DNA of 64,000 nt from an uncultured Rhodospirillaceae bacterium (GCA_964474755.1 CAYYUG010000011.1:8698-72697); one strand, 5' to 3'; shown: positions 14,243-63,318, counted from the stretch's first letter. Numbers and translations: made by a program. The notes: generated by a model not told the origin, from the letters alone.

Positions 14243-14483
14243 GCGTGCCCCTATCACTTAAAGCTGTCACTAAAACGCCAAATGCGCCAGTGCGCGAAAC
14301 TCGCGGACTGGCGTAGCCCCTCGGGACTGGAAACCAACGTTTCCCGAATGAGAACGGGCTTTTACGCCGGCATTCAGCGCAAGTCAAGCAACCGCCTCCG
14401 CACAAACGGTGTTTACATCACCCCTAGTTTCGTACCAACATTAATGAAGCTGTTTTAAAAACAGGGGCAAAGAGGGGCTCGAC

Positions 14484-19777: not shown

Positions 19778-20308
19778 TCAACCCTCCCTTAAATGAGCGT
19801 CGCGCCGGTCAAACAGTTTGTCATCGGCGTAGCCCATTGCCTCCGGCTTGCCGCGCCCCAGCATGACCTGAAAATAAACCGGCTCTAAGCTCTTGTTCTC
19901 GAAGCCGTGGATGACGCCAGCCGGGCACGCGATGCATTCCCACGGCCCAAGCCGCGTCCAGAGCTGCTCGCCCGCCTCGTCTTCGATGAACACATCGAGG
20001 ATGCCCTGCAGCACGAAGAAGCATTCCTCGACCTCATGCGTGTGCGCCGCATTACCCTGCCCCGGCTCCACATACATGATCGACAGGGTGAAGTTGTCGG
20101 CAGGGATCGCGTTCGGATCTTCATGCTTACCAGACCCGCCGGCGCCAATAAAGCGGTGCTGCGCGCGCTTGTAGCCCTCGATCTTGGCGTCCTCGAAAGC
20201 AGCCCAGTCCGGCGTCTTCTCGCGGAAACGCCCAACATAACGGTCCATGATCTCCGGCAGCGGCACGCCGACCAGTTCAGGCGCGCGGGGATGGCGGGCG
20301 GCACTCAT
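19778..20308 (-). CDS. cupin domain protein
   Basis: ATG at 20308 is preceded by AAGGAGAA. The cupin metal motif GNAAHTHEVEECFFVLQG...PAGVIHGFEN is present. The track ORF is N-terminally over-extended. Confidence 0.75.
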   Translation of the reverse strand: MSAARHPRAPELVGVPLPEIMDRYVGRFREKTPDWAAFEDAKIEGYKRAQHRFIGAGGSGKHEDPNAIPADNFTLSIMYVEPGQGNAAHTHEVEECFFVLQGILDVFIEDEAGEQLWTRLGPWECIACPAGVIHGFENKSLEPVYFQVMLGRGKPEAMGYADDKLFDRRDAHLREG

Positions 20309-20395
20309 GACGGTTCTCCTTGGCAGCTTATGCGGTTCAAGATAGCCGGAGATTGTAGGTGGAGGGAACGAAGACTGTGCGGCTTGGTGCGCCAT

Positions 20396-21727
20396 TTACT
20401 CCACGATCCGCCGAACCGGCCGTTTCAGTCCGATATTTTCGCGCAGTGTACGGCCTTCGTATTCCGAGCGGAACAGGCCACGGCGCTGCAGCTCGGGCAC
20501 TACGAGGTGGGTGAAGCGTTCCATGCCGGTGGGCACCACGGGGGCGGCAATCATGAAACCGTCGCAGGCCTTGCCGCTATACCAGGCCTCCATGACGTCG
20601 GCGACTTGGACGGGGTCGCCGGTGAACATGTTGCCGGCCATCTGCGGCAGGATCCGCATATAGGTCTGCTGCACAGTCAGGCCTTCCTCCTGAGCGACCT
20701 GTACGATTGCGCCTGCTATACCAGTCGGGCCGTGATGTCCCTCGGGCCAATTGGGCATCGGGCCGTCGACCGGAAATGCCTTCATATTCAGCCCGGTCAT
20801 TTTGGACAAATAGTCGACGCCGACCGCCAGCGGCACAAGATCATCCAGTTCTCCAGCGATATCCGCCGCCTGCTGCGCTGTTTCGCCGACGATGATCGTG
20901 ACGCCAGAGAGAATTTTAAGATCCTCCGGTTCGCGGCCGTATTTCGCGAGGCGGTCCTTGAAGTCAGTGTAAAGTGCCTGGCCGGCCTCCAAACTCCCCT
21001 CGATGGCGAAGATGCAGTCAGCGTGGCGGGCGGACAGCTCGCGGCCGGCCTCGGACTGGCCGGCGGAGAACACTACCGGATGGCCTTGCGGCGGGCGCGG
21101 CGCGTTGAGCGGGCCTCTAACCTCGAAGTGCTTTCCCTTATGGCGGAGCGCCTGGACCTTTGACGGGTCGAGGAACCGCCCGCTCGCTTTGTCCTGCGGA
21201 AAGGCGTCGTCGGCCCAGGAATCCCAGAGACCCTTCACGATGTCAGCAAATTCGTTCGCGCGTTCGTAGCGCGTATCGCGCGCGACATGTTCGGTATGGC
21301 TGAAGTTCAGCGCGTCATTGGCGTTGGAGGTCGTCACCAAGTTCCAGCCTGCACGGCCGCCGCTAATATGATCGAGCGAGGCGAAGCGCCGAGCAACGTG
21401 AAAGGGTGCATCATAGGTCGTGGTGGTGGTGGCGACGAGGCCGATATGCTGCGTCACCATCGCCAAGGCGGACAGCAAAGTCACAGGCTCAAACACCCCC
21501 GGCCGGTCCGACGGCGAGGTGGCGGCAAACAGGTCTGGCTTGTCCATGTTACGGACACCGTTACCGTCGGCGAGAAAGAGCAGGTCCATCTTGCCGGCCT
21601 CGGCGATCTGCGCCAGCCGCATCGCATTACCGATATTGGCGGCCGGATTATCCCACGCATCAGGATGTCGCCACTCCCCCACATGACTGCCCTGAGCGTT
21701 GCCGTTGGCGGCGAGGATCATCGGCAT
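20396..21727 (-). CDS. LLM-class flavin-dependent monooxygenase (NtaA/SnaA/DszA subfamily)
   Basis: 443 aa. SHVGEWRHPDA, DLLFLADG, ISGGRAGWNLVTS; typical long NtaA/DszA-type luciferase-like monooxygenase. Confidence 0.85.
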   Translation of the reverse strand: MPMILAANGNAQGSHVGEWRHPDAWDNPAANIGNAMRLAQIAEAGKMDLLFLADGNGVRNMDKPDLFAATSPSDRPGVFEPVTLLSALAMVTQHIGLVATTTTTYDAPFHVARRFASLDHISGGRAGWNLVTTSNANDALNFSHTEHVARDTRYERANEFADIVKGLWDSWADDAFPQDKASGRFLDPSKVQALRHKGKHFEVRGPLNAPRPPQGHPVVFSAGQSEAGRELSARHADCIFAIEGSLEAGQALYTDFKDRLAKYGREPEDLKILSGVTIIVGETAQQAADIAGELDDLVPLAVGVDYLSKMTGLNMKAFPVDGPMPNWPEGHHGPTGIAGAIVQVAQEEGLTVQQTYMRILPQMAGNMFTGDPVQVADVMEAWYSGKACDGFMIAAPVVPTGMERFTHLVVPELQRRGLFRSEYEGRTLRENIGLKRPVRRIVE

Positions 21728-21758
21728 GTTGGGCCCATCCCGTTGCGTCGTCCATCAT

Positions 21759-24041
21759 TCATTTTTCCGCCGCCACCTGCAGCATCCGCCAGACATTCGG
21801 CGGCGACAACGGCAGGGCCATCGGTTCCACGCCAAAACTGGTGAGCGCCTGGGCGACGGCGTTGGCGATCACGCCGCCGACCGGGATTATCTCGCCCTCG
21901 CCCGCCCCTTTGGCGCCGAGCGGGTTGTGCGGCGAGGGCGCGAGCTCAAGCACAGTCGAGCGAATGTTCGGGAAGTCCGTCGCGGTCGGCAGCAAATAGT
22001 CGGCCAATGTGCCGGTCAGCAGCTGCCCTTGCGCGTCGTAGACGAACTCCTCCAGCAGCGCCCCGCCAAGCCCCTGCACGATCGAACCAACTGACTGGCC
22101 GTTCAGGGTCGCCGGATTGATCTTTCGGCCGACATCCTTGGTCGAAGCGATATCGAGCACGTCTACCTGGCCCGTCTTTGGGTCAACCGCCACATGCGCA
22201 GCCAGGCTGCCGTAGGAGTATGTGTATTTCTTGTTCTCGAACCGCGCCTCGACCGCAACTGGTTCGTCAGTCAGACCGGTATAGGCAACTGAATGTCCAG
22301 CAGCATCGCGGACGCCCTCGGCCTCAAACCGAACCGCATCTTCGGGGCAGCCGAGTGCCATAGCGGCCATCGGCCGGAGCTTGTCCTGCAACGCCTTCGC
22401 CGCCAGCATGATCGCGGAGCCACCCATGACCGTCGAACGCGAATGAAACGAGCCGTACCCTTCGGCAACGCACGCCGTCGATCCGTAATGCACGCGCACC
22501 CGTTCAAACGGAACGCCGAGCGCGTCGCCAGCGATCTGACCCATGATGGTTTCGATACCTTGACCAACCCCAGCCGAGCCGAGATAGACTGCGAAGGTTC
22601 CGCCGGTCTCCAAGACGATACGCGCATCCTCGCTCGGCCCCGCCGCACCGCCCTCGATGAAGCAGCCAACCGACACGCCATGATAGCACCCGTCGATGCA
22701 TTGCCCTTGCAGTTTAACCTTCTCGTCCCAACCAAATTCGTCCAGACAACGGTCAAGCAGCGCGTGATTATCGCCGCTGTCCAGCGACGTCACGCTTTCA
22801 AACGGCGTCATGGTGGCCAGCGGATAGGGCATCTTGTCAGCAGGCACGAGGTTGCGCCGCCGCACCGCGAGCGGATCGAGGCCGAGATCCTTGGCCATGA
22901 GATCGATCAGCCGTTCACGCACAAAATCCGGCTCGAACCTGCCCGGCCCGCGATAGGTGCCGGTAGGCGTCTTGTTCGTCGTCAGCGAATAGCTGGTCAG
23001 TCGAATATGCTCAATATCGTAGGCGCCAGACATGAACTGCGCGGCGTTGCGCGGCGCGATCGAGCCGTTAGTGCGGATATAGGCGCCATTATCCGTCCAG
23101 TTGGTGCCGCGCAAGGCGATAATCTTGCCGTCCCGTGTCGCCGCGATCGCCACATCGCACTCGATTTGCCGCGCATGGTTCGCCGCCATCATATGCTCAC
23201 AACGATCCTCGACCCATTTGATCGGCCGGCCGAGATAACGCGTGGCGAAGGGGATCAGGAAATCCTCGGGATAAAATTCGCCACGCGAGCCGAAGCTGCC
23301 GCCGACATCACCTTCGATCAGGTCGATCTGGTCGAGATCGAGGCCCATCGTAGCAGCGAGGATCTTACGGTTAGCGAAGGCAACCTTGGCCGCGCCCCAG
23401 ACGGTGAGCCTTTCCGCACCCGTGTCCCATTCGGCAACAAAGCCGCGCGGCTCCATAAAGAGCGCGGCGTGGCGTTGCACCGTAAAGGTTTCGCGACGCG
23501 TGTAGTCGGCTGTTTCGAACGCCACGTCGGCATCGCCCTTCACCGCATTCCAGCGCATGGAGACATTGGAACCGTGTTCGGGAAAAAGCAGCGTCTCAAC
23601 CGCCTCCGCCTGGTCGCGGCTGGTGATGGCGGGCAGGGAATCGATTTCGATTTTGATCAGGTCGAGAGCATCCTCAGCGATGGCAGGACTCTCGGCGATC
23701 ACGACAGCCATCGGTTCGCCGACATAGCGGACTTTCTCGTCCGCCAGCATCGGTTGGCAGAACTGCTCCAATTCCGGCAGTGGCTGCAGCCGGATCGGCA
23801 ACCGCGGTACGGTTTCACCTAGATCATGTGCCGTCAGCACCACGTGTACACCATCTAGTTTAAGAGCGGCGTCCGTTTCGATACCACGCAATAGCCCATG
23901 CGCGACCGGGCTGCGCAGGATCACTGCGTGCAACTGGTTCGGCCGGTTGATGTCAGCGACAAACTGCCCGCGCCCGCGCAGCAAGCGCAGATCTTCGACC
24001 CGCTCCAGCGCACTGCCGATTAGGCGATTCGGCGCGCTCAC
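21759..24041 (-). CDS. xanthine dehydrogenase-family molybdopterin-binding large subunit (CoxL-like, not CO dehydrogenase)
   Basis: A GTG start at 24041 overlaps the small-subunit stop (GTGA) and gives VSAPNRLIGSALERVEDLRLLRG. The active-site loop reads GTYRGPGR, not AYXCSFR. The track ORF extends upstream into coxS. Confidence 0.85.
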   Translation of the reverse strand: MSAPNRLIGSALERVEDLRLLRGRGQFVADINRPNQLHAVILRSPVAHGLLRGIETDAALKLDGVHVVLTAHDLGETVPRLPIRLQPLPELEQFCQPMLADEKVRYVGEPMAVVIAESPAIAEDALDLIKIEIDSLPAITSRDQAEAVETLLFPEHGSNVSMRWNAVKGDADVAFETADYTRRETFTVQRHAALFMEPRGFVAEWDTGAERLTVWGAAKVAFANRKILAATMGLDLDQIDLIEGDVGGSFGSRGEFYPEDFLIPFATRYLGRPIKWVEDRCEHMMAANHARQIECDVAIAATRDGKIIALRGTNWTDNGAYIRTNGSIAPRNAAQFMSGAYDIEHIRLTSYSLTTNKTPTGTYRGPGRFEPDFVRERLIDLMAKDLGLDPLAVRRRNLVPADKMPYPLATMTPFESVTSLDSGDNHALLDRCLDEFGWDEKVKLQGQCIDGCYHGVSVGCFIEGGAAGPSEDARIVLETGGTFAVYLGSAGVGQGIETIMGQIAGDALGVPFERVRVHYGSTACVAEGYGSFHSRSTVMGGSAIMLAAKALQDKLRPMAAMALGCPEDAVRFEAEGVRDAAGHSVAYTGLTDEPVAVEARFENKKYTYSYGSLAAHVAVDPKTGQVDVLDIASTKDVGRKINPATLNGQSVGSIVQGLGGALLEEFVYDAQGQLLTGTLADYLLPTATDFPNIRSTVLELAPSPHNPLGAKGAGEGEIIPVGGVIANAVAQALTSFGVEPMALPLSPPNVWRMLQVAAEK

Positions 24042-24517
24042 GACTCGCCCTCCGCCGTGCGATAGGCCGCGCGCGCTTCCAGCACGGCCTCGACGATGGG
24101 AACGTAGCCGGTACAGCGGCAAATGTTCCCGGACAAGACCTCGCGCACCCGATCTGCATCGGCGTTCGGCTCCTCGCTCAGCAGCGCATGCGCCGTGGTC
24201 ACCATGCCTGGTGTGCAGAAGCCACATTGCAACGCATGATGCTTACGGAAGGCTGCCTGCAGCGGAGTCAAATCGTCATCCCGGCTCAGACCTTCGACGG
24301 TCACAATATTTTCGCCGGCAACCTGCACCGCCAGGGTCAGACAAGACCGTACCGCCTCGCCATCGACGATTACCGTGCAGGCGCCGCAGACGCCGTGCTC
24401 GCAACCGAGATGGGTCCCGGTAAGGCCCAGCACGTCGCGCAGACAGTCGGCCAGACTAAGGCGCGGTTCCACATCGACCTCGAGCGCTTTGCCATTGACC
24501 TCGAAGGCGACCTTCAT
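24038..24517 (-). CDS. (2Fe-2S)-binding small subunit of Mo-hydroxylase (CoxS-like)
   Basis: 159 aa. CEHGVCGACTV and CGFCTPGMV...CRCTGY, the two [2Fe-2S] motifs. Confidence 0.92.
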   Translation of the reverse strand: MKVAFEVNGKALEVDVEPRLSLADCLRDVLGLTGTHLGCEHGVCGACTVIVDGEAVRSCLTLAVQVAGENIVTVEGLSRDDDLTPLQAAFRKHHALQCGFCTPGMVTTAHALLSEEPNADADRVREVLSGNICRCTGYVPIVEAVLEARAAYRTAEGES

Positions 24518-25371
24518 GACGCGGCGTCCTGCAAGGCGCGTTCAATCAGGATTGCGACCAGCGCGCGACGGTAGTCGGCCGGGGCATGATGGTCTTCCAT
24601 CGGTGAAACCTCACTGGACGCAGCTTCAGCCGCTGTTGCGATGGCCACCTCATCGACGTCCGTCCCGTCAATCGCCGCCTCCGCAGCATGCAGACGATGC
24701 GGCCGGTCGCACGCGCCAATCACACCGATATGGGCATCCCGAGCCCGGCCCTGCGCATCGAGATCGTAATGCAGCGCGATCCCGGCCAGTGCGAAATCAC
24801 CCTTGCGCCGCGCAAACTCCCGAAACGCCCAACGCCGCCCGCCGGGCCAAGCGGGAAATGTGATCGCCGTCAAAATTTCATCTGCGGCCAAATCCGTCGT
24901 CATCGGTCCAAGAAAAAATTCCGCCGCCGCAACGTGGCGTTCACCACCAGGTCCAAAGAGCGTCAACCGCGCATCGCAGGTCACCGCCACCCCTGGCAAT
25001 TCAGCAGCGGGATCGGCCAGCGCGAGGCTGCCGCCAGCCGTTCCCCGGTTACGAATATGGTAGTGCGCAATGTGCCGCGTCGCCGCGGACAGCAGCGGGT
25101 GCGCCGCGGACAGTCCAGTATGGCGCTCTATATCGCGCCAGCGCACACGGGCGCCAAGCGTAATGCCGTCCGCACCGATGTCGATCCGGTCAAGCGCTGG
25201 CACATTTTTCAGATCGACCAGCAGCGCCGGCGCCGCCATCCGGAACGCGAGTATCGGCATCAGGCTCTGCCCACCGGCGAGGAGCATTGCTTCGTCGCCA
25301 TGGTCGGCCAGCAGCGCAACCGCCTCGGACAGGCTGGTCGGTGATTCGTAGTCGAAGGCGGGAAACTTCAT
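24514..25371 (-). CDS. FAD-binding medium subunit of Mo-hydroxylase (CoxM-like)
   Basis: Start MKFPAFDYESPTSL at 25371. LLAGGQSLMPIL FAD motif. 4-nt overlap with the small subunit. Confidence 0.88.
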   Translation of the reverse strand: MKFPAFDYESPTSLSEAVALLADHGDEAMLLAGGQSLMPILAFRMAAPALLVDLKNVPALDRIDIGADGITLGARVRWRDIERHTGLSAAHPLLSAATRHIAHYHIRNRGTAGGSLALADPAAELPGVAVTCDARLTLFGPGGERHVAAAEFFLGPMTTDLAADEILTAITFPAWPGGRRWAFREFARRKGDFALAGIALHYDLDAQGRARDAHIGVIGACDRPHRLHAAEAAIDGTDVDEVAIATAAEAASSEVSPMEDHHAPADYRRALVAILIERALQDAAS

Positions 25372-25453
25372 GACCTCACGATATTGTAGCGAAAGGGAAG
25401 GTTCGACCAGTAGTCTATCGTGAGATTCATCGAATGCCAGAACGGACAATGAC

Positions 25454-26425
25454 ATGACCATACTCGACGGACAGCGCGTCATCGCTATCGAAGAACATTA
25501 TTCCGACCCGGAGGTGACATCCCTGTTCGAGGGCATCGACGGCAACGCCGCCCGCATGATGCATGAGCAGCTCGACGATGTCGGCGAGGCGCGTCTCAAA
25601 TCGATGGATGCGGCGGGCATCGACATGCAGGTCCTGTCGCACGCCCCACCGGGACCGCAGCGCCTTGACCCGGAGACCGCGGTCCGCGTCTCAAAGACGG
25701 CTAACGACCGGCTCCGCGATATCTGCAGTTCCCATCCCAACCGGTTCGCCGGGTTCGCCATGCTGCCGACCCCGGACCCCGCCGCAGCCGCGAACGAACT
25801 GGAACGCTGTGTAAATAAGCTCGGCTTCAAAGGCGCTCTAATCCATGGGCTGACGGGCGCGGAGCGGCTGTTCATTGACGATAAACGTTTCTGGCCCATC
25901 TTCGAGCGCGCCGAAGCGCTGGACGTACCGCTCTACATCCACCCGGCGATCCCGCACCCAGCCGTGATGGATGCCTATTTCAAGCCCTATGCCAAGGACC
26001 ATCCGGGTTTCCTAACCGCCGGCTGGGGATTCACCATGGAGACCGCTACGGCAGGCATCCGCATCATCCTGTCCGGCGTGCTAGAAAAATATCCCGGCAC
26101 CAAAATCATTATGGGCCATCTGGGTGAGACCCTGCCCTTCCTACTCTGGCGCATCGATCTCGCCTTGAACCGCCGCGGCGCGGCCGGCGTGCCGTTCCGC
26201 GAGATGTTCACGAAGCATTTCCACGTGACGACCAGCGGCTTCTTCTCTGATCCGGCGCTGCTGTGCTGTATCCAGGAGATGGGTACCGACCGCATCCTGT
26301 TCGCCGTCGACTATCCTTTCGTGCCGCAAGAGCCAGGACCTAAATGGATGGAAGGGTTGATGCTGAACGATGCGGACAAGGCCAAGATATTACACGGCAA
26401 TGCGGAAACGCTGCTCCGGCTATAG
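25454..26425 (+). CDS. amidohydrolase-2 family protein (ACMSD-like metal-dependent hydrolase/decarboxylase)
   Basis: 323 aa. IAIEEHY N-terminal metal motif, LYIHP, GHLGE, FAVDYPF C-terminal Asp motif. Divergent from the Mo-hydroxylase operon. Confidence 0.8.
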   Translation: MTILDGQRVIAIEEHYSDPEVTSLFEGIDGNAARMMHEQLDDVGEARLKSMDAAGIDMQVLSHAPPGPQRLDPETAVRVSKTANDRLRDICSSHPNRFAGFAMLPTPDPAAAANELERCVNKLGFKGALIHGLTGAERLFIDDKRFWPIFERAEALDVPLYIHPAIPHPAVMDAYFKPYAKDHPGFLTAGWGFTMETATAGIRIILSGVLEKYPGTKIIMGHLGETLPFLLWRIDLALNRRGAAGVPFREMFTKHFHVTTSGFFSDPALLCCIQEMGTDRILFAVDYPFVPQEPGPKWMEGLMLNDADKAKILHGNAETLLRL

Positions 26426-52635: not shown

Positions 52636-53823
52636 TTAGCTAATCGAACCTATCCCGTAGACACCAGTAAGTAATTGGCCCGTCTCGAACCGATCCAGCC
52701 CGTAGCCTCTGATGTCCACATCGGTCGCCTGACCGAGGGCGGTTTGAGCCTGCACCTTACCGATCGCTGGTGCCAGCTTGAAGCCATGGCCGGAGAACCC
52801 AAAATTCACCATCAGTCCGCCGATCCCCGGCACGAATCCTAACACCGGGTTCCAGTCCGGCGTGATATCGTAGGCTCCAACCCAACTGTCTGTGAACTCC
52901 GCGCTGGCGAAACTAGGCATACGGTGTGCGACCAAACCGCCCATATGCAAAATGAAATCATCGCCAACATTTTCGTCAATTGTATCAGCATCGGTGATCG
53001 GGTCGCCATGATCGCCAGTCCCCACCAAGACAACGCCGCCGGTTGCCGGCCGGAAATACATCTTATTATCCGTTGCTAAGTCTTTAACAATCGGCAGCAT
53101 GCGTCCGTATTCCGATCCCGACCGCATAGTCAGCACTGTGTGGCGAGAGACGTCTAGCGGAATGTCGAGGCCTATTTCATCAGTCAGGGACCGCGACCAG
53201 GGACCGATTGCGACGATTACGGTTTCTGCATACAAAATACCCTGGACCGTCTTCACACCCTTTACTTTGCCGCCCTCCAAAATCAAGGAGGTAACGGAGC
53301 ACTCCGTTTTTACCGTAATCCCCTTACGCCGAGCGGCGTTGAGAAAGCTAGTCGTAGTCAGGTAGGGATCAGCGTAACCGGAATCCGGTTCGTAGCCGAT
53401 CACATGAGCATCGTCTACCGACAGCAACGGATGCCGTTCAAGTGCCTCCTCCTTGGAAATTTCATACGTATCGGCACCAACGCCCGCCTGCATAGCTAGA
53501 TTGTCTGCTAGCTTGTTCGCGAAATCGCCTTCAGGCGCGACGATGATATACCCGGAATTTGTAAAGCCGGATTCCGCCTCATCATCTTCCAACCAGTCCT
53601 TGAATTGGCGGAACATTTCAATGCTTTTTACCGTCAGTTGCGTGTTGGTCGGCACGGAATAGTGACTGCGGATGATGGCACAGGACTTCGCGGTACCGCC
53701 GCTGCAAACCGGCCCTCGATCGACAACACAGACATTCAGTTTGCCAAGCTTAGCCAAATGAAACGCGGTTGACGCCCCTATCACACCGGCTCCGACTACG
53801 ATCGCATCAAACGTTTCTGTCAT
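52636..53823 (-). CDS. FAD-dependent oxidoreductase (DAO family)
   Basis: ATG at 53823 after AAAGGA. DAIVVGAGVIGASTAFHLAKLG and the SGHGFKLAP C-terminal motif. Confidence 0.8.
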   Translation of the reverse strand: MTETFDAIVVGAGVIGASTAFHLAKLGKLNVCVVDRGPVCSGGTAKSCAIIRSHYSVPTNTQLTVKSIEMFRQFKDWLEDDEAESGFTNSGYIIVAPEGDFANKLADNLAMQAGVGADTYEISKEEALERHPLLSVDDAHVIGYEPDSGYADPYLTTTSFLNAARRKGITVKTECSVTSLILEGGKVKGVKTVQGILYAETVIVAIGPWSRSLTDEIGLDIPLDVSRHTVLTMRSGSEYGRMLPIVKDLATDNKMYFRPATGGVVLVGTGDHGDPITDADTIDENVGDDFILHMGGLVAHRMPSFASAEFTDSWVGAYDITPDWNPVLGFVPGIGGLMVNFGFSGHGFKLAPAIGKVQAQTALGQATDVDIRGYGLDRFETGQLLTGVYGIGSIS

Positions 53824-53934
53824 ATCGACGTCCTTTATCGTTTCACTGCACGTTAACCGCGCCCCGGAGCGGGTGCAATTGCACCGCGCCAGTCGCTGTA
53901 ATAACTTCGGACTAATCGAAAAAGGGAGACAGTG

Positions 53935-54813
53935 ATGTCGAAGGGTAAGCAATTACGCGATTTGATGACCAGTGATGGAATGGTCCTAGCACCGGGCGCC
54001 TATGACGGGCTGACGGCAAAACTAGTCGCCCAGGCCGAATTCTCGGCCGTCTACATGACCGGGGCAGGCACGTCCTGCAGCCATGGCTACCCCGATTACG
54101 GACTAATCACGATGAGTGAGATGGTCGCCAACGCTGGCCGTATGGCGGACGCGGTAAATCAGCCTGTGATTTCTGATGCCGACAACGGGTATGGCAACGA
54201 ACTCAATACTTTTCGCACGATTCAGGAGTTCGAGAAGGCAGGTGTCGCAGGGGTTCATTTGGAAGATCAGGCATTCCCAAAACGTTGTGGCCATCTGGAA
54301 GACAAAGAACTAATCCCGCTTGACGACTATCTAGCCAAAATTCGCGCCGCAGCCGACGCCAGACGCGATCCAAACTTCGTCATCATCGCGCGCACAGACG
54401 CACGTGCCTCGCTCGGCTTTGAGGAGGCGGTCAAGCGGTGTAACGCGGCGTTGCAGGCCGGCGCCGACGTGGCGTTCCTGGAAGCACCGCAGAACATGGA
54501 TGAGATCGCCGCAGCACCACGCGAAATTAACGGACCCTGCCTGTTAAACGTGGTACGAGGCGGCAAAACGCCGGAGATCGAATTCGTACAGGCAAAAGAA
54601 ATGGGCTACCGCATCGCCATCGTCCCGGGCCTGCTTTTCGTCCAGGTTATCGGAGCATGTGAAAAAATACTGGCCGCGATGAAGGCGGAAGGGAAGCATC
54701 CAGCACCAATCACCGAAATGAGCCCAGGGGGAGCCTTCGGCCGGGCCGGCGCATCTGACTGGGATCCCCGACGCGAGATCTACCGGGAGGCACCACAGCA
54801 AGCCGCCGAATGA
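53935..54813 (+). CDS. isocitrate lyase/PEP mutase superfamily C-C lyase (methylisocitrate-lyase/oxaloacetate-decarboxylase-like)
   Basis: DADNGYG and HLEDQAFPKRCGH (K-R-C-G-H lyase-type loop). ATG at 53935 lies 5 nt after AAGGGAGA. Confidence 0.78.
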   Translation: MSKGKQLRDLMTSDGMVLAPGAYDGLTAKLVAQAEFSAVYMTGAGTSCSHGYPDYGLITMSEMVANAGRMADAVNQPVISDADNGYGNELNTFRTIQEFEKAGVAGVHLEDQAFPKRCGHLEDKELIPLDDYLAKIRAAADARRDPNFVIIARTDARASLGFEEAVKRCNAALQAGADVAFLEAPQNMDEIAAAPREINGPCLLNVVRGGKTPEIEFVQAKEMGYRIAIVPGLLFVQVIGACEKILAAMKAEGKHPAPITEMSPGGAFGRAGASDWDPRREIYREAPQQAAE

Positions 54814-55967
54814 CTATCACGGGAAGTCGCGCGTCAGATCTAGCGACTCGGGACGGGCTGAGCGCGCTTGAGCGCGCAAAGCGCCAACCGCTCATATTGG
54901 GCTTGTTTCTGCCGATTCAAAATGGTGGCTGGACCATCTCGTCTGCAGCGCGCAATACGGACTGGTCCTTCGACTATAACGCGAAACTGATCGTGAAGGC
55001 GGAAGAGGCCGGCTTTGATCTTGCCTTCGGTCTTGCCCAGTGGCTTGGTTCCGAGGGACACGGCGGTGCCACCAAATACCGTAAATTCTCAATCGATCCG
55101 CTGCTAGTCACCTCCGGTGTTGCGGCGCTCACCCGCAACATCATGCTGATCTCCACAGTACACGTATTGTACGGTTGGCATCCGCTGCATCTGGCTAAGC
55201 TCGGCGCCACCATGGATCATATGACCGGCGGCCGATGGGGCCTGAACCTGGTAACCGGATTCCGGCCAAACGAAATTGAAATGTTCGGGCTCGACCCAAT
55301 ACCGCGTGACGAACGTTATGTCCGGGCAGCAGAGTTCACAGACATACTGGATACGTTGTGGCGATCGGAAGAAGATATTAGCTGGGAAGGGGACTACTGG
55401 TCTCTGAAAAGCGCATACGTCTCGCCCAAACCAGTGCATGGCCGCCCGATCCTGGTCAACGCTGGCAGCTCCAAGGCGGGTCTTGCCTATGCTGCGAAAT
55501 ATTCCGACCTGATTTTTATCACCAGCCCCGGTGGCGCGGAAATCAGTGCTGCGCTGAAAACGCTGCCTGCACACACGGCAGAGATTAAGGCTTTGGCCGC
55601 TGAACAGGGCCGAGAAATTCGAACCGTTATTAATCCGCACGTCATCTGCCGAGATACGGAGCGTGAAGTGGATCAGGTTTGCAAGGCTATTCTCGTCGGC
55701 GAGGACGCGCCCGCTGTCAACAGCCTGGTAGGCACTATGCGCCAAGGCGACCAGTCATCCTGGCGCGGCCATGAAAGACGGCAGCGAATAATCGGCGGTA
55801 ATGTTCAAATTTTTGGCACTCCAGAGCAGGTCGTCGAGCAGTTTGCCGCCCTAAAAGACGCCGGTTGCGATGGTTTGCAGATCAATTTTTTCGATTTTGC
55901 GCCAGACTTAGCCTATTTCGCAAAAAATGTCCTACCGTTGATGAAACAGGCCGGCCTGCGAGTCTAG
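54810..55967 (+). CDS. LLM-class flavin-dependent monooxygenase (RutA/SfnG-like subfamily)
   Basis: 385 aa. LGLFLPIQNGGWTIS...DWSFDYN and MTGGRWGLNLVTGF resemble RutA/SfnG. ATGA overlap with the upstream lyase gene. Confidence 0.8.
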   Translation: MTITGSRASDLATRDGLSALERAKRQPLILGLFLPIQNGGWTISSAARNTDWSFDYNAKLIVKAEEAGFDLAFGLAQWLGSEGHGGATKYRKFSIDPLLVTSGVAALTRNIMLISTVHVLYGWHPLHLAKLGATMDHMTGGRWGLNLVTGFRPNEIEMFGLDPIPRDERYVRAAEFTDILDTLWRSEEDISWEGDYWSLKSAYVSPKPVHGRPILVNAGSSKAGLAYAAKYSDLIFITSPGGAEISAALKTLPAHTAEIKALAAEQGREIRTVINPHVICRDTEREVDQVCKAILVGEDAPAVNSLVGTMRQGDQSSWRGHERRQRIIGGNVQIFGTPEQVVEQFAALKDAGCDGLQINFFDFAPDLAYFAKNVLPLMKQAGLRV

Positions 55968-56033
55968 TTGGTAGCTTTACAAAATACCCGAAAAACCGGA
56001 TAGCGACACAACGCTTGCACCTTCAGCGTGATA

Positions 56034-58478
56034 CTAGCTATGCAGTTTTTCGCCGCCGGGATCATATACCGGTCGGAAACTCGCGGTCGCGGCGAACCGC
56101 CGGCTAGCAATTTCGACCTCAAATCCACCAGCCGACACCATATCATCAACGCTCTTTTCACCCGCCTGCACCAATCCTATCGCAACAGTGCGGTCGACAG
56201 TGTGGCCGAAGGCCGCACTAGACACTTGCCCGACAAAGGCACCATTCCATAGGATCGGTTCGCCACCGATTGCTAGTGCCTCCTTCTCCACCACAGTGAA
56301 TATAACGAGCCTTTTGCGCAGGCCCACTTCCCTCTGTCGCCGCAGGGCTTCCTGGCCGATGAACGGCGTGTCGAGGTCAATTTTAGCCGCAAAGCCCAAC
56401 CCCGCTTCCAACGGTGTGGTCTCCGGTGTCAAATCATGGCCCCAAGCGCGGTAACCCTTCTCGAGCCGCAGACAAGTCATGGCGGTGGTGCCGGCGTCGC
56501 GCAAGCCAAAGTCTCCGCCCACCTCAAACAACATGTCATATACGGCACCGGCGAAACTGATAGGCATGAAGAGTTCCCAACCAAGTTCACCGACATATGA
56601 TAACCGGGCCGCCCGGACCGGCCAGCGCCCCACCGTGATGTCTTGCCAGGACATGTAGGGGAAATCCGCGTTAGATAGGACCCCATCGCTTACGGCACCA
56701 ATGAGATCACGAGCCTTTGGCCCAGCAAGCGCCAGCACCGCAGTGCTCTCTGTCACGTCTTCGATGGTGACCCTTTCATTCCTGAGATTTCGCGTAACCC
56801 AATCGTGGTCGCGGACCGGTTGCGCTGTGCTGGTGACAATCAAATAGTCGTCCGTCGCATAGCGGAAGACAGTGCAATCGGATTCGTAGCCGCCGCGCTC
56901 ATTTAGCATACCGGTGTAGATTACGCGGCCCGGCGCAGCCGACATATCGTTCGCGCAAAGCCGCTGCATCAGCCTCTCCGCTTCTAGGCCTCGCACTCGG
57001 AGCTTGCCGTAGCTGCTCTGATCGAACAAGGCGACATCATTACGTGCAACGGCATGCTCCGCGGCAACATAGTGCTCGAAGTCCGGTCGAGAGAACGTCG
57101 GAGATATGTTAACGGCCACACCATCAGTGGCAAAGAAGCTCGGTCGCTCCCACCCCATTCGCTGGCTGAAATGCGCCCCTTTCATCTTCTGGCGTTCGTG
57201 CAGCGGGCCGTGGCGGACGTCCCGCGCAGACTTAAACTCACGGTGCGGCGCTTCGGTGACGTAGTGCATCGAAAGCACTTCCGGTGCCCGTTCCCGCAAC
57301 ATACGCATATTGTTGTGAAACGGCGCAAAACGACGAATGTCGACCGGCCACAGATCGAGCGTTGGCTCACCCGAAATGATCCATTCGGCCAGCCAGCGTC
57401 CTGCGCCACCACTGCTTGCCATACCGGCCGAATTCATGCCGCAGCCGAGAAAAAACCCGCGCAACTCTGGGGATTCGCCAAGCAGGAAGCGTCCATCTGG
57501 CGTAAAGCTTTCTGGCCCATTCAACAGCATGCGGGCCTCAGCCTGCTCCAAAGCCGGGACGCGGTGTATACCGTTTTTCAGCATTGGTTCAAAATGATCC
57601 CAATCCTCGGCCAATAGATCAAAGGCAAAATCCTTTGGCAGCTGGTTGAGACCGATGGCGCGCGCATTCGGTTCGAAGCTACCAACTAGCAGGCCGCCAA
57701 CATCGTCGCGCAGATAGAGATGCGCATCGTGATCGCCCAGTGTCGGCAAATGCCCTTCGACCTCTTCCAACGGCTGAGTTAGCAGATAAAAATGCTCGCA
57801 GGCGTGCAACGGCGCCGAAACGCCGGCCAGTGCGGCGACCGAATGTGACCACAGTCCAGCGCAGAGCGCCACCGCCTCGCAAGCGATGGTGCCGTGAGGC
57901 GTTTCTACTCCGGTGACTTGTCGGTTCTCAACCGTAAAGCCAGTGACCGGCGCATCCTCCACAATATGTGCACCATTCGCTCGCGCCGCCTTAGTCAGCG
58001 CGGCGCAGAGATCGCTTGGATTGACGCGACCGTCTTCCGGGGACCAGACCGCACCAACCAAATCGTCGGTTCGGATCAAAGGCCACAATCGACCCGCCTC
58101 CTCCGGCGAGACAACGTTCACCTCAATGCCGAATAGCCTGGCCAGCGAGGCTTGGCGCTTGATGTGTATGAAACGTTCCTTGTTTGTCGCAAGACTGAGG
58201 CTGCCAGTTTGCAACCAACCGGTCGACTGCCCAGTCTCTTCCTCCAGACTCTGATATAGCTTGGTGCTGTACTGGATCATCCGTGTCAGGTTCTCGCTGG
58301 AGCGCAATGCACGCACCTGAGCCGCGGAGTGCCAGCTCGTACCCGAAGTAAGCTGCTTGCGCTCAAGCAGAACAACATCGCGACACCCCGCCTTAGCAAG
58401 GTGATAAGCCGTGCTGCATCCCATGACACCACCGCCAATAACAACAACACTAGCGTTGGTTGGGAAAATGTTAGACAT
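56034..58478 (-). CDS. dimethylglycine/sarcosine dehydrogenase-like enzyme (DAO FAD domain fused to GcvT aminomethyltransferase domain)
   Basis: 814 aa. VVVIGGGVMGCSTAYHLAKAG N-terminus and a folate-binding GcvT-like C-terminal half (SYVGELGWELF). Confidence 0.85.
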   Translation of the reverse strand: MSNIFPTNASVVVIGGGVMGCSTAYHLAKAGCRDVVLLERKQLTSGTSWHSAAQVRALRSSENLTRMIQYSTKLYQSLEEETGQSTGWLQTGSLSLATNKERFIHIKRQASLARLFGIEVNVVSPEEAGRLWPLIRTDDLVGAVWSPEDGRVNPSDLCAALTKAARANGAHIVEDAPVTGFTVENRQVTGVETPHGTIACEAVALCAGLWSHSVAALAGVSAPLHACEHFYLLTQPLEEVEGHLPTLGDHDAHLYLRDDVGGLLVGSFEPNARAIGLNQLPKDFAFDLLAEDWDHFEPMLKNGIHRVPALEQAEARMLLNGPESFTPDGRFLLGESPELRGFFLGCGMNSAGMASSGGAGRWLAEWIISGEPTLDLWPVDIRRFAPFHNNMRMLRERAPEVLSMHYVTEAPHREFKSARDVRHGPLHERQKMKGAHFSQRMGWERPSFFATDGVAVNISPTFSRPDFEHYVAAEHAVARNDVALFDQSSYGKLRVRGLEAERLMQRLCANDMSAAPGRVIYTGMLNERGGYESDCTVFRYATDDYLIVTSTAQPVRDHDWVTRNLRNERVTIEDVTESTAVLALAGPKARDLIGAVSDGVLSNADFPYMSWQDITVGRWPVRAARLSYVGELGWELFMPISFAGAVYDMLFEVGGDFGLRDAGTTAMTCLRLEKGYRAWGHDLTPETTPLEAGLGFAAKIDLDTPFIGQEALRRQREVGLRKRLVIFTVVEKEALAIGGEPILWNGAFVGQVSSAAFGHTVDRTVAIGLVQAGEKSVDDMVSAGGFEVEIASRRFAATASFRPVYDPGGEKLHS

Positions 58479-58725
58479 GAGGATCTCTAAAAATTTTTGA
58501 ACCGCTATCGAAGGTCGTTTTCAGGACACGACGATGCACCGTTACTCCCACAAATGCCATTCATTCATCTCTACTTTGTCGGAAATTTCAGACCTGTTGC
58601 AGTTATAACGGTAAAGCCTAATCATTTCGCCGGTCAGCACGACCTGATCCTTGCTATACACTCACTCAACCCTGAAGGCCGATGCTTTGCACCACTGCCA
58701 CCGATAGTCATTGGTAGAAAGTACT

Positions 58726-58739
58726 ACGCAAGCTTGCGT
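58726..58739. terminator. perfect 14-bp palindrome, bidirectional terminator-like
   Basis: ACGCAAGCTTGCGT, flanked by TGTGTATTTTGA on the plus strand and AGUACUUUCU on the minus strand. It lies about 65 nt after the 2-hydroxyacid dehydrogenase stop. Confidence 0.4.
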
Positions 58740-58802
58740 TGTGTATTTTGATCCGTGCCGCTCCGCAAATGCAGCCACCCCGTTCTTTGCCGGTATCGTC
58801 GT

Positions 58803-59726
58803 CTACTTAGGTTCTTCGAGCCCATCGCGTAGTTTCTCTATTCCCATACGCAGAAGCCTCTCCGCAGCTTCCGGCGAGGCCCAGGCAGCGTGCGGGGTCA
58901 GTGTAACGTTATCCAGTTCGCAGAACTGGTTATCCGCTGGAAGCGGTTCATCACCGAATACGTCGAGTGCAGCATAACCGATACGGCCCTGGGCCAGTAG
59001 ATCAGCGAGCGCCACCTCATCAACCAGAGCCCCGCGGGCCGCATTGACCAACACAGCATGTGGCTGTAGCAGTTCGAGCCGACGCCGGTCGATGATCTTT
59101 TCGGTTTCCGGAACCAGGTCTATATGCAAGGTAACCACGTCTGACCGACGCATTAGATCGTCTATCTCGACCGCCTCGCAGTCGACTTCGCCAGACACAC
59201 CACTACGGTTCCATGCGATCACCTTCATTCCAAGCGCAGCCCCAAGCTGCGCCATCGTGCAGCCGACACCACCTAGGCCGATCACACCCAGGGTCTTGCC
59301 TTCCAGTTCGAACCCACCATCGGGCCGCCAGGTACCGCTCCGCACTTCTCGGTCGAGTTGCACGACACGTCGCACGCCAGAAAGTATCAGTGCCAGGGTG
59401 TGTTCCGCGATGGTGCGATTTCCATAGCCAGCAACCCCACAGACAGCAATCCCGCACGTTGCTGCGGCATCCAAGTCAACATAGCTGGCAACCCCGGTGC
59501 CTAGAAAGACTATGACTTTGAGGTCCGGCAACACCTGCAGCAGCTCGGAAGACATCTTCGTGTGACCGTTGAGCACGCCGGTGTACCCCACCAACAGCTC
59601 CGGCAAGTCTACCGGATCTGGATCGCCAATGTGGATATCCAGGAATGGCAAAATATCCGAGATTCCTGGGGTGGTGTCATAGAGCGCCTTTAGCTCAGCA
59701 CTGCAATCGAAGTAGAGCGCCCGCAT
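58803..59726 (-). CDS. D-isomer-specific 2-hydroxyacid dehydrogenase (NAD-binding)
   Basis: 307 aa. GVIGLGGVG, NAARG and TPHAAW (catalytic His). Starts 12 nt after the selenoprotein gene stop. Confidence 0.85.
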   Translation of the reverse strand: MRALYFDCSAELKALYDTTPGISDILPFLDIHIGDPDPVDLPELLVGYTGVLNGHTKMSSELLQVLPDLKVIVFLGTGVASYVDLDAAATCGIAVCGVAGYGNRTIAEHTLALILSGVRRVVQLDREVRSGTWRPDGGFELEGKTLGVIGLGGVGCTMAQLGAALGMKVIAWNRSGVSGEVDCEAVEIDDLMRRSDVVTLHIDLVPETEKIIDRRRLELLQPHAVLVNAARGALVDEVALADLLAQGRIGYAALDVFGDEPLPADNQFCELDNVTLTPHAAWASPEAAERLLRMGIEKLRDGLEEPK

Positions 59727-59738
59727 AATGCTGATGCC

Positions 59739-60632
59739 CTATGATGCGGCGATAAAACTGCGTTTGTCTTGCACCTGACGCGCCCGCCGCGCCTCGCCCT
59801 CAGCACGCAACGCGTTGCGATTTTCCGGGCCGATATAGTTATAGACGTGCCGCCAGCCCTCGCCTCCCGGCCAGAGGACCGGCGAATGCACCGTGGTACG
59901 TGGTCCAGAAGCGGACTCAAGCAGGTCGATCGCTTGAGCGGCTATAAGCGCTTGCGCTGCACGGTCGTAGGGAGGACCAGCCGGATTACCGAGTGGGAAG
60001 TCGGTGAAGACCAACCTTGGAACCCCACAATGTTCGACAATGTCGCGACCTGACCCAATGATCACAGTCGGAATACCAGCTTCTTCGATCGCACGTGCAA
60101 CCAAACTCACGGTTTGGTGGCAGACTGGTCATATGGGGACCAAAACGGCAGCGTCAGCCTGATCCTCCTGGCACAGCCGCACGATATGCGCGGCGTCTTG
60201 GTCAAGGGTCTGACGGTGGCTATAGGTCGTCGGGACTCCATGAAAGCGCTCTGTCAGCCCTCCTATGCGGCTTTCCGTCGCCAAAGCGTGTAGCGCCAGC
60301 ACTGGTAGATAACTCTCCCTGTCTCGCATATGGGTCGTTTCCTTATCCCAGGCGAGATATTCGGTGTGCAGATCTGCCGGCGTGTCCTTAGTCAGCCCGC
60401 TCCAAACCTCCTTGAGCTTGCGGTTTCCATCCTTCGGCCCACCAGGCGGGCTCGAAGTGGTAACGATCACGACTCTGCTCTCCGTCAGAGAATTTTTCAG
60501 AGTTGTGAAGGGCACGTCGTCATATCGAGACCACTGATAGTCGTTGTTGTAGCCGAGCGCACGGTAATAGCGCCGCGTGCGCTCCATATAACCGACCGGA
60601 TCAGTCCTACCAATCTCTGTATTTAGGTTCAC
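59739..60632 (-). CDS. selenocysteine-containing GrdB/PrdB-like reductase-family protein (UGA-Sec at 60131..60129, residue 168 of 297)
   Basis: ORFs 60129..60632 and 59739..60110 are in the same frame and are separated only by one TGA. Read-through gives ...QADAAVLVPI-U-PVCHQTVSLVARAIEEAGIPTVIIGSGRDIVEHCGVPRL.... The 'M' of the second ORF is an internal GTG (Val). A SECIS-like hairpin follows the TGA. The N-terminal start is uncertain (GTG at 60632 or ATG at 60587). Confidence 0.75.
60096..60122 (-). promoter_or_regulatory. candidate bacterial SECIS stem-loop
   Basis: The mRNA reads UGA-CCAGUC-UGCCACCAAAC[CGUGA]GUUUGGUUGCA. That is an 11-position helix with one C/U mismatch and a perfect 6-bp apical stem. 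The 5-nt loop contains G and U at +18..+22 after the UGA. Confidence 0.6.
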
Positions 60633-61353
60633 GCTTCACTCCATCCACATAAAGTTGCGACATATTGATTGAACAAGGGGACCCAGTCTAGGAATTCGCT
60701 AGCTCTAATTATTAAGGAAGGCTGCGAGCACCGCCAGCGGCTCGCTGCTGGCAAAGGCTTCCTCTTGGCCAACCATGCCTGCCCTAACCGCCTCGTCGAT
60801 TCTCGCGAAACTATAGTTTGGTGTGTTTCCAACAGAAAGAAGACGTGCCGGCGAATTCCGCTGCGATCTCACAGGCTTTCTACACGAAATTTTCGACCGT
60901 GATTAGATGGCTAACTAGACCAGGTAGTTGGGCTCTTTTGACAAACGGATCGAGGCCTAAAACATTGAGTGGCCACACTCAGCCATCGACGAAAGATCGC
61001 CGTTGGAAACCACATGCACTCACCGACCCGCGGATATGATCGAAAAGGCTCTCACCATTTGTATCCTGCGATGATAAGATTGCGTAAATGGATTTACGGG
61101 GAATTTATCTCGGCAATTTTATTGATCGGGACGGCAAGGCACAGAGTGTGACCATCATGACCTAATGGGGATTCCAAGGTATCACTTTTCAATACGAAAG
61201 AATTTTTGATCTGTATGGAAAATTGGAGACCATACCAACGACATTCATGATAATTAAAAAAAAATTTATTCCTTTTATGGGCGAGCCACTGATGATACCA
61301 GCATGAAAATAGGACATGGCAGAATGACAATATTTCGGTGGGAAATTTAGTTT

Positions 61354-63318
61354 ATGTGCGGCTTTGCCGGATTCTTATCTCTCCAGAGTTATGGCTCACA
61401 GAAACATAGCGCAGACCGATTAACGAAAATCGCCCATCAAATGGGCGATGTTATGATACATCGTGGCCCGGATGGCGGCGGCATATGGACCGATCCCAGG
61501 GTAGGCCTTGCGCTATCCCATCGCCGTCTGTCGATCATTGATCTGTCAAAGGCTGGACGCCAGCCCATGGTTTCCGGACAAGGACGGATGGCAATCAGTT
61601 ATAATGGCGAGGTCTACAACGCGAACGAATTGCGTGCGGAATTACAAGACATCGGCGTTGCGTTTCAGGGGCATTCGGACACAGAGGTCATACTGGAAAG
61701 CTGCGTTCAATGGGGCGTCGTCAACACAGTACAGAAACTTGTTGGTATGTTCGCCTTTGTGCTTTGGGATACGGTGGAAAAACAGCTTTGGCTGGTGCGC
61801 GACCGGCTTGGGATAAAGCCGCTTTATTACACGATTACACCGGATCAGACATTGATCTTTGGATCAGAGCTTAAAGCGCTCCGCGCTCATCCCAATTGCC
61901 CCAGTGAGATTAACCGCGATGCCGTCTCCGCTTTTATGCGACACAACTATATTCCCGGACCATTCAGTATTTTCAAGGGAATCCAAAAGCTTCAACCTGG
62001 ACATATACTGAAGCTAAATATCGATGATTACGAACCAAGTGTGGAGCCTTATTGGTCACTGGACGACGCAGCGCGCCATGGCGAGACCTATCCGTTCAAG
62101 GGAGACGAACCAGCGGCGCTTGAAGCCCTAGAGGCCCTGTTCGCTGACGCGGTGTCCCGGCGCATGATCGCCGATGTGCCCTTGGGAGCATTTCTGTCGG
62201 GAGGAATCGACAGCTCCACCGTAGTCGCCTTGATGCAGGCGAACAGCACCCAGCCTGTTCGCACATTTTCCATTGGTTTTTCCGAGGACGGCTTCGACGA
62301 AGCCGTTCATGCCAAGGCGGTCGCTGCGCATATCGGCACAGATCACACCGAAATGTATGTGACATCGGAAGAAGCAAGAGCGGTGATTCCAAATTTGCCC
62401 GATTACTACGACGAACCTTTTGCCGACTCTTCGCAAATTCCAACCTATTTAGTTTCCGCCATGACACGGGACCACGTCACCGTTGCTTTGTCCGGTGATG
62501 GCGGCGATGAGTTGTTCACTGGTTACAATCGATATTTTCAGGCGCAGAAAATTAAACGCATGCTTACCCTTGTGCCCAGCTCTTTACGTGCTGCGGCGGG
62601 ATCAACAATCCGCGCTTTTCCGCCGTCGTTCTGGAATGATGTTTTCAAGCTGGTTCCACCGTCAAAACGACCGCCTCAGGCAGGCGATAAAATGCACAAA
62701 CTGTCGGAGGTGCTTAACACAGACCAAGACGGGTTTTATCGCCGAATTATCAGCCATTGGCCACAACCGGATGAAATCGTAATTGATGGTAGAGAACCCA
62801 AAGGCATTATCTGGGACGACGGGTTGCAACAGCGCATTCCTGATTTTATACGGCGCATGCAATATCTCGATACGCTAACCTATCTTCCAGACGACATCCT
62901 CACAAAGGTGGATCGTGCGAGCATGGCGGTGTCGTTAGAGGCCCGGCTGCCAATATTGGACCACCGATTGGTGGAATTCGCTTGGCGTTTGCCAGAAGCC
63001 ATGAAGATAAGAAACGGAGAAGGGAAATGGTTATTGCGCCAGTTGCTTTATAAATATGTGCCCCGCACTTTAATCGATCGGCCAAAAATGGGATTTGGCG
63101 TACCCATTGGGGATTGGATGCGGGGGCCCTTGCTGGATTGGGCCGAAGATTTGCTTTCTGAGTCGACATTTAAGAAGCACGGGCTTTTGCATGCCGCGCC
63201 AGTTTTAGAAAAATGGCGAGATCACAAATCGGGCCGACATAACTCGCAATATCTATTATGGAACGTGCTAATGCTGCACGCCTGGGCGGAAAAATATTGC
63301 GCTAGAGGCGCAACGTGA
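61354..63318 (+). CDS. asnB: asparagine synthase (glutamine-hydrolysing) family amidotransferase
   Basis: 654 aa. MCGFAGF N-terminal nucleophile Cys, LSGGIDSS PP-loop; the long form often found in polysaccharide loci. Confidence 0.9.
   Translation: MCGFAGFLSLQSYGSQKHSADRLTKIAHQMGDVMIHRGPDGGGIWTDPRVGLALSHRRLSIIDLSKAGRQPMVSGQGRMAISYNGEVYNANELRAELQDIGVAFQGHSDTEVILESCVQWGVVNTVQKLVGMFAFVLWDTVEKQLWLVRDRLGIKPLYYTITPDQTLIFGSELKALRAHPNCPSEINRDAVSAFMRHNYIPGPFSIFKGIQKLQPGHILKLNIDDYEPSVEPYWSLDDAARHGETYPFKGDEPAALEALEALFADAVSRRMIADVPLGAFLSGGIDSSTVVALMQANSTQPVRTFSIGFSEDGFDEAVHAKAVAAHIGTDHTEMYVTSEEARAVIPNLPDYYDEPFADSSQIPTYLVSAMTRDHVTVALSGDGGDELFTGYNRYFQAQKIKRMLTLVPSSLRAAAGSTIRAFPPSFWNDVFKLVPPSKRPPQAGDKMHKLSEVLNTDQDGFYRRIISHWPQPDEIVIDGREPKGIIWDDGLQQRIPDFIRRMQYLDTLTYLPDDILTKVDRASMAVSLEARLPILDHRLVEFAWRLPEAMKIRNGEGKWLLRQLLYKYVPRTLIDRPKMGFGVPIGDWMRGPLLDWAEDLLSESTFKKHGLLHAAPVLEKWRDHKSGRHNSQYLLWNVLMLHAWAEKYCARGAT

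Follow-up and report, generated by a model that had tools for sequence, protein, structure and literature searches.

Among the closest described systems to the gene considered here are the D-proline, glycine, sarcosine and betaine reductases, for whose selenoprotein subunits PrdB and GrdB a UxxC motif (U, selenocysteine, Sec) is listed. The glycine reductase complex is recognised at a locus by grdA, grdC/D, grdE and trxA/trxB, and D-proline reductase by prdA together with prdC/D/E/F. Selenoproteins named 'PrdB' have also been catalogued from seawater: in passages of the Sargasso Sea survey 'proline reductase PrdB' ranks third in abundance among the families, with 42 UxxC selenoproteins (Zhang, Fomenko & Gladyshev 2005, PMC1088965), passages of the Global Ocean Sampling survey list 235 PrdB selenoproteins plus 110 cysteine (Cys) forms (Zhang & Gladyshev 2008, PMC2398784), and those of a later marine survey give PrdB as 6.4% of all selenoprotein genes (PMC9402790). 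In the passages concerned the name was given by homology only, and partners, context and proline-reductase capacity are not addressed. A literature search returned no title on orphan PrdB homologues, and the term 'PrdB-like' gave nothing. Here we describe a PrdB-like selenoprotein gene in a 64,000-nucleotide (nt) stretch, hereafter the window, from an uncultured Rhodospirillaceae bacterium (GCA_964474755.1, CAYYUG010000011.1:8698-72697). The locus is a clade-specific placement of a known, uncharacterised and probably mis-named selenoprotein family.

The window gene encodes a real selenocysteine protein. Its reading frame opens on the minus strand with a GTG at 60632, nine bases 3' of a Shine-Dalgarno-like GGAG, and is conserved across an in-frame TGA at 60131..60129 down to a TAG at 59741..59739, giving 297 codons including that for Sec; an earlier reading of this DNA, made without database searches (the sequence-only reading), had extended the region to 60832, a coordinate which belongs to an out-of-frame open reading frame (ORF). 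Both halves around the TGA align over the full length of 13 full-length Cys homologues at 49-55% identity, and all 13 have Cys at the TGA position within a motif L-C-P-V-C-H-Q-T, where the window protein reads U-P-V-C, Sec being the first residue of its UxxC motif. Among 185,579 species, each represented by a single genome, 305 relatives were found, and the 80 most similar loci were used for codon and hairpin work; the homologous codon is TGA in 79 of these, spanning many genera, and TGT in one (L053). Many shortened 'proteins' in a 1.84-billion-sequence library stop exactly one residue ahead of the Sec position, indicating that they are Sec forms cut by gene callers. The predicted Sec insertion sequence (SECIS) hairpin begins 7 nt 3' of the TGA (UGC.ACCAAAC[CGUGA]GUUUGGU.GCA), and 98.1% of its stem cells are paired in 76 distinct sequences, against 21-37% when the partners are slid. 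Compensatory changes are found in the stem (AU:38/GC:35/GU:3 at one pair, CG:68/UA:7 at another), and are achieved via synonymous CAA/CAG and TTG/CTG codons and via a His-codon change paired with a Val-to-Ile replacement. In L053, the sole Cys locus among the 80, stem and loop are both degraded. The marks by which a bacterial selenoprotein is recognised, namely an in-frame UGA with a SECIS hairpin, conservation of both in orthologues and Cys in homologues, are therefore all present.

On sequence comparison the protein plainly appears to be a member of the marine 'PrdB' UxxC group catalogued since 2005. The Sargasso Sea supplement gives AACY01093821 as ...LLVPLuPVCHQTVGLVARHLESNGIPTVIAGSARDIIEQCGVPRFLFTDFPLGNP..., a core as in the window protein, and visual comparison matched the window core to both this entry and AACY01353529. 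The group as a whole has the same core (LLVPLuPVCHQTVGLVARHLE..GIPTV..GSARDI.E.CGVPRF.FTDFPLGNP), the same UxxC motif and members with Sec as well as with Cys, is plentiful among aerobic bacteria of the surface ocean, and shows no sequence-level difference from the window family, so a selenoprotein of aerobic marine bacteria is not new in itself. The family comprises 4101 clusters at 90% identity (E<=1e-3) of ~290-residue proteins, in Sec and Cys forms, from aerobic Alphaproteobacteria and some other Proteobacteria, whose members are annotated in sources as 'D-proline reductase (dithiol) PrdB' or 'glycine reductase'. A sister subfamily of 311 amino acids (aa) with an NCPVCHQT motif (at least 7998 clusters) is mostly Bradyrhizobium-like, and fusions of ~800 aa carry a class I adenylate-forming (AMP-binding) domain ahead of a Cys-form PrdB-like domain (P0125, P0389-P0398, P0122, P0123; L172 2760-5213). 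Both groups share the core and [U/C]PVCHQ with the window protein and are likewise stand-alone, with no Grd/Prd partners, but they are Cys forms with an extra insertion, whereas the window protein stands unfused, with no AMP-binding gene next to its own.

Profile comparisons point to a homologue of the catalytic PrdB/GrdB selenoprotein subunits that falls below every membership threshold. The NCBIfam PrdB equivalog TIGR04483 matches at E=2.7e-18 with 66.3 bits against a cut-off of 300, and only in part, residues 102-240 of the window protein corresponding to profile positions 81-220 of 238; the TIGR01918 subfamily model gives 33.2 bits against 65.45, and it and the GrdH/GrdF/GrdB models together span 31-38 bits against cut-offs of 65-800. 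A Pfam scan of the protein gave no match at E<=1e-3, including PF07355 GRDB (gathering score 22), although PF07355 matches, precomputed or weak, exist for a few relatives. Like clostridial PrdB, the protein has a homologous Sec half, a similar size, Sec as the first residue of UxxC and a SECIS within the coding sequence; it differs in that its N-terminal 100 residues are unmatched, its host is aerobic, and no prdA, prdC, prdD, prdE or prdF adjoins the gene. With GrdB, GrdF and GrdH (PF07355, TIGR01917/01918, NF040794/5) it shares UxxC, with Sec or Cys first at a position matched through hidden Markov model coordinates, and weak homology to their Sec-bearing C-terminal third (positions ~258-403 of 431), but it is ~140 residues shorter, and neither grdA/C/D/E nor a thioredoxin system lies near its gene. 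The family-specific N-terminal half contains the invariant blocks YxERTRxYYxxLGY, AWDxExTH and FHxxPTxYS, and the alignment has about sixty invariant positions, including dozens of polar residues outside UxxC, many of them His, Arg, Asp and Tyr. An AlphaFold model of the Cys homologue P0002 (57% identical to the window protein) has an alpha/beta fold (predicted local distance difference test 89, predicted template modelling score 0.89), with the Cys that corresponds to Sec placed between strand 151-155 and the N-terminus of helix 159-174; searches for a solved relative returned no PDB sequence match and no Foldseek match.

The family lacks a pyruvoyl partner (PrdA/GrdE), GrdA, GrdC/D or any other conserved neighbour in the contexts examined. 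Within the window, Pfam was run on the 49 ORFs of at least 150 aa over the whole 64 kb, those below 150 aa being read by eye and left unscanned; among the 49 there is no GrdA/C/D/E, PrdA, thioredoxin or thioredoxin reductase, and no SelA/B/D, while ARAGORN found no tRNA of any kind in the window and the sole match to C[GPA]PC falls within a stop-containing stretch. The gene sets that mark a glycine reductase complex or a D-proline reductase are thus both absent from the scanned ORFs. Family-wide, we compared 55 loci dereplicated at 85% identity, with 101 immediate neighbours representing 102 Pfam families; GrdE/PrdA, GrdA and thioredoxin are not recurrent among these neighbours, families present once being unlisted, and the same holds for the prdA and prdC/D/E/F set. 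These results agree with the sequence-only reading, which had seen neither accompanying grd/prd genes nor Sec-insertion genes, had placed the gene outside a Stickland grd/prd operon, and had found no function to name for the selenoprotein, a statement that stands.

We favour, with a probability of about 0.6, a stand-alone PrdB-like selenoprotein, that is a putative self-contained selenol/thiol (UxxC) reductase without a conserved partner. In such an enzyme, by analogy with the half-reaction of PrdB/GrdB, a small substrate would be attacked at an electrophilic or activated centre by the selenolate, the adduct would be resolved to an Se-S bond by the vicinal Cys of UxxC, and a general cellular thiol system would re-reduce that bond. 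Given the co-location with an N-methyl-amine oxidation island, a reasonable first guess at the substrate in this clade is an alpha-substituted acid from the N-methyl-amine pathway; the family-wide data do not support extending that guess beyond it. A bolder form of the proposal, which we hold tentatively and think possible rather than probable, is that orphan PrdB-like proteins are self-sufficient reductive-cleavage enzymes of aerobes, in which the N-terminal half would take over substrate activation from the pyruvoyl subunit and Sec or Cys would carry out C-N/C-X cleavage or acyl-(seleno)ester chemistry, the latter option being hinted at by the recurrent fusion to adenylate-forming domains.

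The gene neighbourhoods across the family are varied. The commonest immediate neighbours in the 55 loci are luciferase-like monooxygenase (LLM; five), 2-Hacid_dh (four), and TctC, ECH and acyl-CoA dehydrogenase (three each). Further clues from context are weak. LLM alone is enriched within 1.5 kb of the Sec gene (9 hits against ~1 per farther bin), in only 3-4 lineages; an acyl-CoA theme was dropped, as ACAD, ECH, CoA-transferase and AMP-binding genes are not enriched with proximity to the Sec gene. At high-GC loci longest-ORF calling gave antisense artefacts, and calling filtered on GC content at third codon positions, though itself not perfect, was used instead. The Bradyrhizobium Cys homologue P0079 lies with MFS and TPR protein genes, a context unrelated to amine catabolism, as are the housekeeping-like SLT/SPOR, PilZ and ClpA neighbours of the sister-subfamily members P0373 (B. 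canariense) and P0274; the 311-aa sister gene at L168 7001-7936 and L170 7001-7936 stands alone between SLT/SPOR lytic transglycosylase and PilZ/ClpA genes. Another Cys homologue (L083) sits between acetyl-CoA-synthetase-like and MFS genes, a few kb from cytochrome c oxidase genes. The fusion gene of L172 adjoins a glutathione peroxidase gene, while P0125 and P0121 lie on short, uninformative contigs, and no PrdB-like gene neighbours the Roseovarius orthologue of the adenylating domain, which is unfused. Twelve Reyranella-like loci have, directly upstream of the PrdB-like gene, an AhpD-like (CMD) gene that itself contains an in-frame TGA, at a distance of 14-33 nt in the seven loci with a reliable measurement, and the two selenoprotein genes possibly form a redox pair. 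This CMD/AhpD-like selenoprotein reads ...VATINGCPF-TGA-IDINS..., with a CxxU motif, and occurs at L048 5979-6530 and L051 3356-3907, and also in L054, L058, L059, L060, L062, L070, L073, L076 and L080 (~7350-7980).

Several other explanations bear on what the gene makes. If the TGA were a true stop, the locus would contain either a pseudogene or a pair of separate ORFs, and a selenoprotein would not be produced, as might be supposed from the splitting of the gene by gene callers (P0001 and P0104 are 167-aa fragments) and from the absence of Sec machinery from the 64-kb window; we reject this as exceedingly improbable because the frame aligns with Cys homologues on both sides of the TGA, the codon is kept in 79 of the 80 loci, and the hairpin 3' of it covaries, and independent surveys, in the passages cited above, list the family as a selenoprotein. 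Alternatively, the gene may encode a true B-type subunit of a reductase for D-proline, glycine, sarcosine or betaine, whose PrdA/GrdE, GrdA and GrdC/D partners are encoded elsewhere in the genome. The significant similarity to the PrdB/GrdB/GrdH/GrdF models over the Sec half, the common UxxC, the names borne by homologues, and the nearby DMGDH-like and DAO genes, of types acting on sarcosine- or betaine-derived compounds, speak for this, but we consider it very improbable given that the scores lie 4-25 times under every family cut-off, that the N-terminal 80-100 residues are unmatched and that no partner was seen in the window or among the listed recurrent neighbours. The hosts are moreover aerobic: Bradyrhizobium and Reyranella are aerobes, the window encodes succinate dehydrogenase, O2-dependent monooxygenases and oxidases, and the L083 homologue lies by cytochrome c oxidase genes. 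The protein might instead serve general thiol/selenol redox chemistry, as a disulfide reductase, a peroxidase-like protein or a repair enzyme, and not be a C-N/C-X reductase with a specific substrate. This would fit the lack of a conserved metabolic partner, the Reyranella copies downstream of a CxxU selenoprotein gene, the glutathione peroxidase gene beside the fused form in L172, and the dominance of redox-type families in the marine selenoproteome as described in passages of two surveys (PMC1088965, PMC2398784). Yet the invariant His, Arg, Asp and Tyr far from UxxC and the tightly conserved length suggest a defined substrate pocket, the sole recognisable homologues are reductive-cleavage selenoenzymes, and the neighbours are mostly catabolic enzymes, so that this explanation seems unlikely to us, if a serious one.

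A further alternative, put forward by the sequence-only reading, joins the selenoprotein and the adjacent D-isomer-specific 2-hydroxyacid dehydrogenase (HADH) in a dedicated two-gene module, in which, for instance, the HADH would furnish or remove a 2-oxo/2-hydroxy acid or recycle reducing equivalents for the Sec reductase. The arrangement in the window is suggestive, as HADH starts exactly 12 nt after the Sec-gene stop on the same strand, the spacing that had been reported, the order is kept in L001, L003/L086 and L012, and 2-Hacid_dh is the second commonest immediate neighbour in the family. We nevertheless consider a dedicated module improbable. According to tblastn with the window proteins (whose coordinates also served to set the HADH ORFs of L001 and L003 manually), an HADH orthologue of 73-81% identity lies adjacent on the same strand only in the window and in those loci, whose selenoproteins are 71-88% identical to that of the window; an amidohydrolase gene separates the two in L002 and L087, and other neighbours are found in the eight marine relatives at 58-67% identity (L004-L011) and in every more distant one, including the Cys homologues and sister-subfamily members of Bradyrhizobium and other genomes. 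The distant (~30% identical) HADH genes of L036 and L064, which might be counted for a module, are in convergent orientation, and three of the four 2-Hacid_dh cases among the 55 loci belong to the window's own clade. The comparison of Sec and Cys homologues by which the module was to be judged thus revealed no HADH synteny beyond close relatives, adjacency being limited to the clade of at least 71% identity. The HADH instead keeps company with the DMGDH-like gene, which follows its orthologue in the window, L001, L002, L003, L012, L086, L087 and L088, and which comes next on all metagenome contigs retrieved with the HADH query at >=70% identity and with readable downstream sequence (L086, L087, L088). 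On the 1.8-Mb contig of L088 the order is glycosyltransferase / HADH / DMGDH-like / MOSC / DAO, and a PrdB-like gene is lacking within 5 kb. That the DMGDH-like gene is always next, and that the L088 pair has no Sec gene, place the HADH in the DMGDH/DAO unit and not with the selenoprotein. The more stable unit is HADH-(GFA)-DMGDH-like, where GFA denotes a glutathione-dependent formaldehyde-activating enzyme gene, whose accompanying DAO, LLM and ICL-like genes keep synteny in L001 and L012, and the Sec gene is an optional, lineage-specific addition at its 5' end. Weighing against a stand-alone selenoprotein are the Sec-HADH-DMGDH order itself, whose retention across 71-88% identical orthologues makes a functional tie within the clade possible, the position of the L172 fusion gene ~6 kb from another DMGDH-like gene on an unrelated contig, and the active-site geometry assumed for the enzyme, which is drawn from secondary structure only.

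Exopolysaccharide-type genes lie upstream of the HADH unit both in the window (61354-63318 (+), an XrtA/PEP-CTERM-type asparagine synthase) and in L088 (2197-4801, GT4 and Wzy_C), suggesting gain or loss of the Sec gene at a boundary that is itself conserved. An Amidohydro-type metal hydrolase recurs near the Sec gene (L002 8914-10149; L087 12-1085; L005 11180-12418; L007 5905-7143), the copies in L005 and L007 being 50% identical and ~2.7 kb downstream of it.

Features of the selenoprotein locus and its surroundings (window coordinates)
Feature	Position	Strand	Basis
PrdB-like selenoprotein gene	59739..60632	-	translation; alignment to full-length Cys homologues
Selenocysteine codon, in-frame TGA	60129..60131	-	alignment with invariant Cys of LCPVCHQT
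Bacterial SECIS hairpin	60097..60121	-	fold and covariation
D-isomer-specific 2-hydroxyacid dehydrogenase (HADH)	58803..59726	-	PF02826 2.8e-55, PF00389
Decayed GFA gene remnant	58479..58802	-	tblastn, blastn
DMGDH/sarcosine-dehydrogenase-type FAD oxidoreductase fused to GcvT folate domain, 814 aa	56034..58478	-	Pfam
Terminator-like hairpin, 7 bp stem and T-run	55985..56002	-	pattern match only
Luciferase-like monooxygenase LLM (SfnG/NtaA type)	54810..55967	+	Pfam/NCBIfam
ICL/PEP-mutase family gene	53932..54813	+	Pfam/NCBIfam
DAO-family oxidase (N-methyltryptophan/sarcosine oxidase-like)	52636..53952	-	Pfam/NCBIfam

The local setting in the window's clade is an aerobic N-methyl-amine/amino-acid catabolic island, as the sequence-only reading had proposed, and its succession of a DMGDH-like FAD/GcvT fusion followed by LLM, ICL-family and DAO genes was confirmed by Pfam. 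The fusion protein has DAO (5e-77), FAO_M, GCV_T (9e-80) and GCV_T_C domains. HADH scores under all NCBIfam equivalog cut-offs, its best models being glyoxylate reductase, PGDH and 2-HADH, and family membership together with DMGDH linkage makes a glyoxylate/2-oxoacid reductase of the oxidase/dehydrogenase island a plausible role for it. The 324-nt 'gap' between HADH and the DMGDH-like gene matches the GFA of L012 in two collinear segments (43-45% identity, E=6e-9, tblastn) and the GFA gene of L002 at 79% over 72 nt (blastn), and an intact GFA gene stands at this place in L001, L002 and L012. A palindromic terminator had been reported in this interval; the palindrome at 58726-58739 (ACGCAAGCTTGCGT) is weak, with a stem of only 5-6 bp and a poor T-tract, and lies inside the GFA remnant, and terminator-like matches in the region are no more frequent than in shuffles (6 against 5.2 +/- 2.5). 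The terminator-like hairpin just 3' of the DMGDH-like gene is the likely end of the minus-strand transcription unit. The ICL/PEP-mutase gene and LLM overlap by 4 nt, are convergent with the DMGDH-like gene, and form a block that is syntenic in L001 and L012; the DAO oxidase has an 81% identical orthologue within the corresponding block of L012 and L088.

The contexts examined lend no support to the label 'PrdB' or 'glycine reductase', which is unfit to infer Stickland-type metabolism in metagenome-assembled genomes of aerobes, and searches for a function should treat the protein as a stand-alone enzyme and not proceed via the neighbouring dehydrogenase. The family is widespread, making up ~6% of marine selenoprotein genes according to passages of one survey (PMC9402790). 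Its Cys form is very common in soil Bradyrhizobium. The window contributes one clade-specific clue, the co-location with an N-methyl-amine oxidation island. A self-sufficient reductive cleavage, if true, would be a new reaction for a selenoprotein that ranks among the most abundant in the surface ocean.

The rest of the window is typical of an aerobic alphaproteobacterial chromosome, with sdhA/sdhC-type and leuB/C/D-type genes, ffh, ftsY, pgk, amidases, hydrolases, a molybdopterin dehydrogenase and a second LLM. An Rfam ffh sRNA (RF01793) at 14277-14328 (-), with 36.4 bits against a gathering score of 35, is directly upstream of ffh (SRP54, 12890-14257). A second catabolic cluster at 19778-25482 (-), unrelated to the Sec gene, comprises a cupin, the second LLM, and a molybdopterin large subunit (xanthine dehydrogenase/CO-dehydrogenase type) with its FAD subunit, showing this to be a genome rich in catabolic islands.

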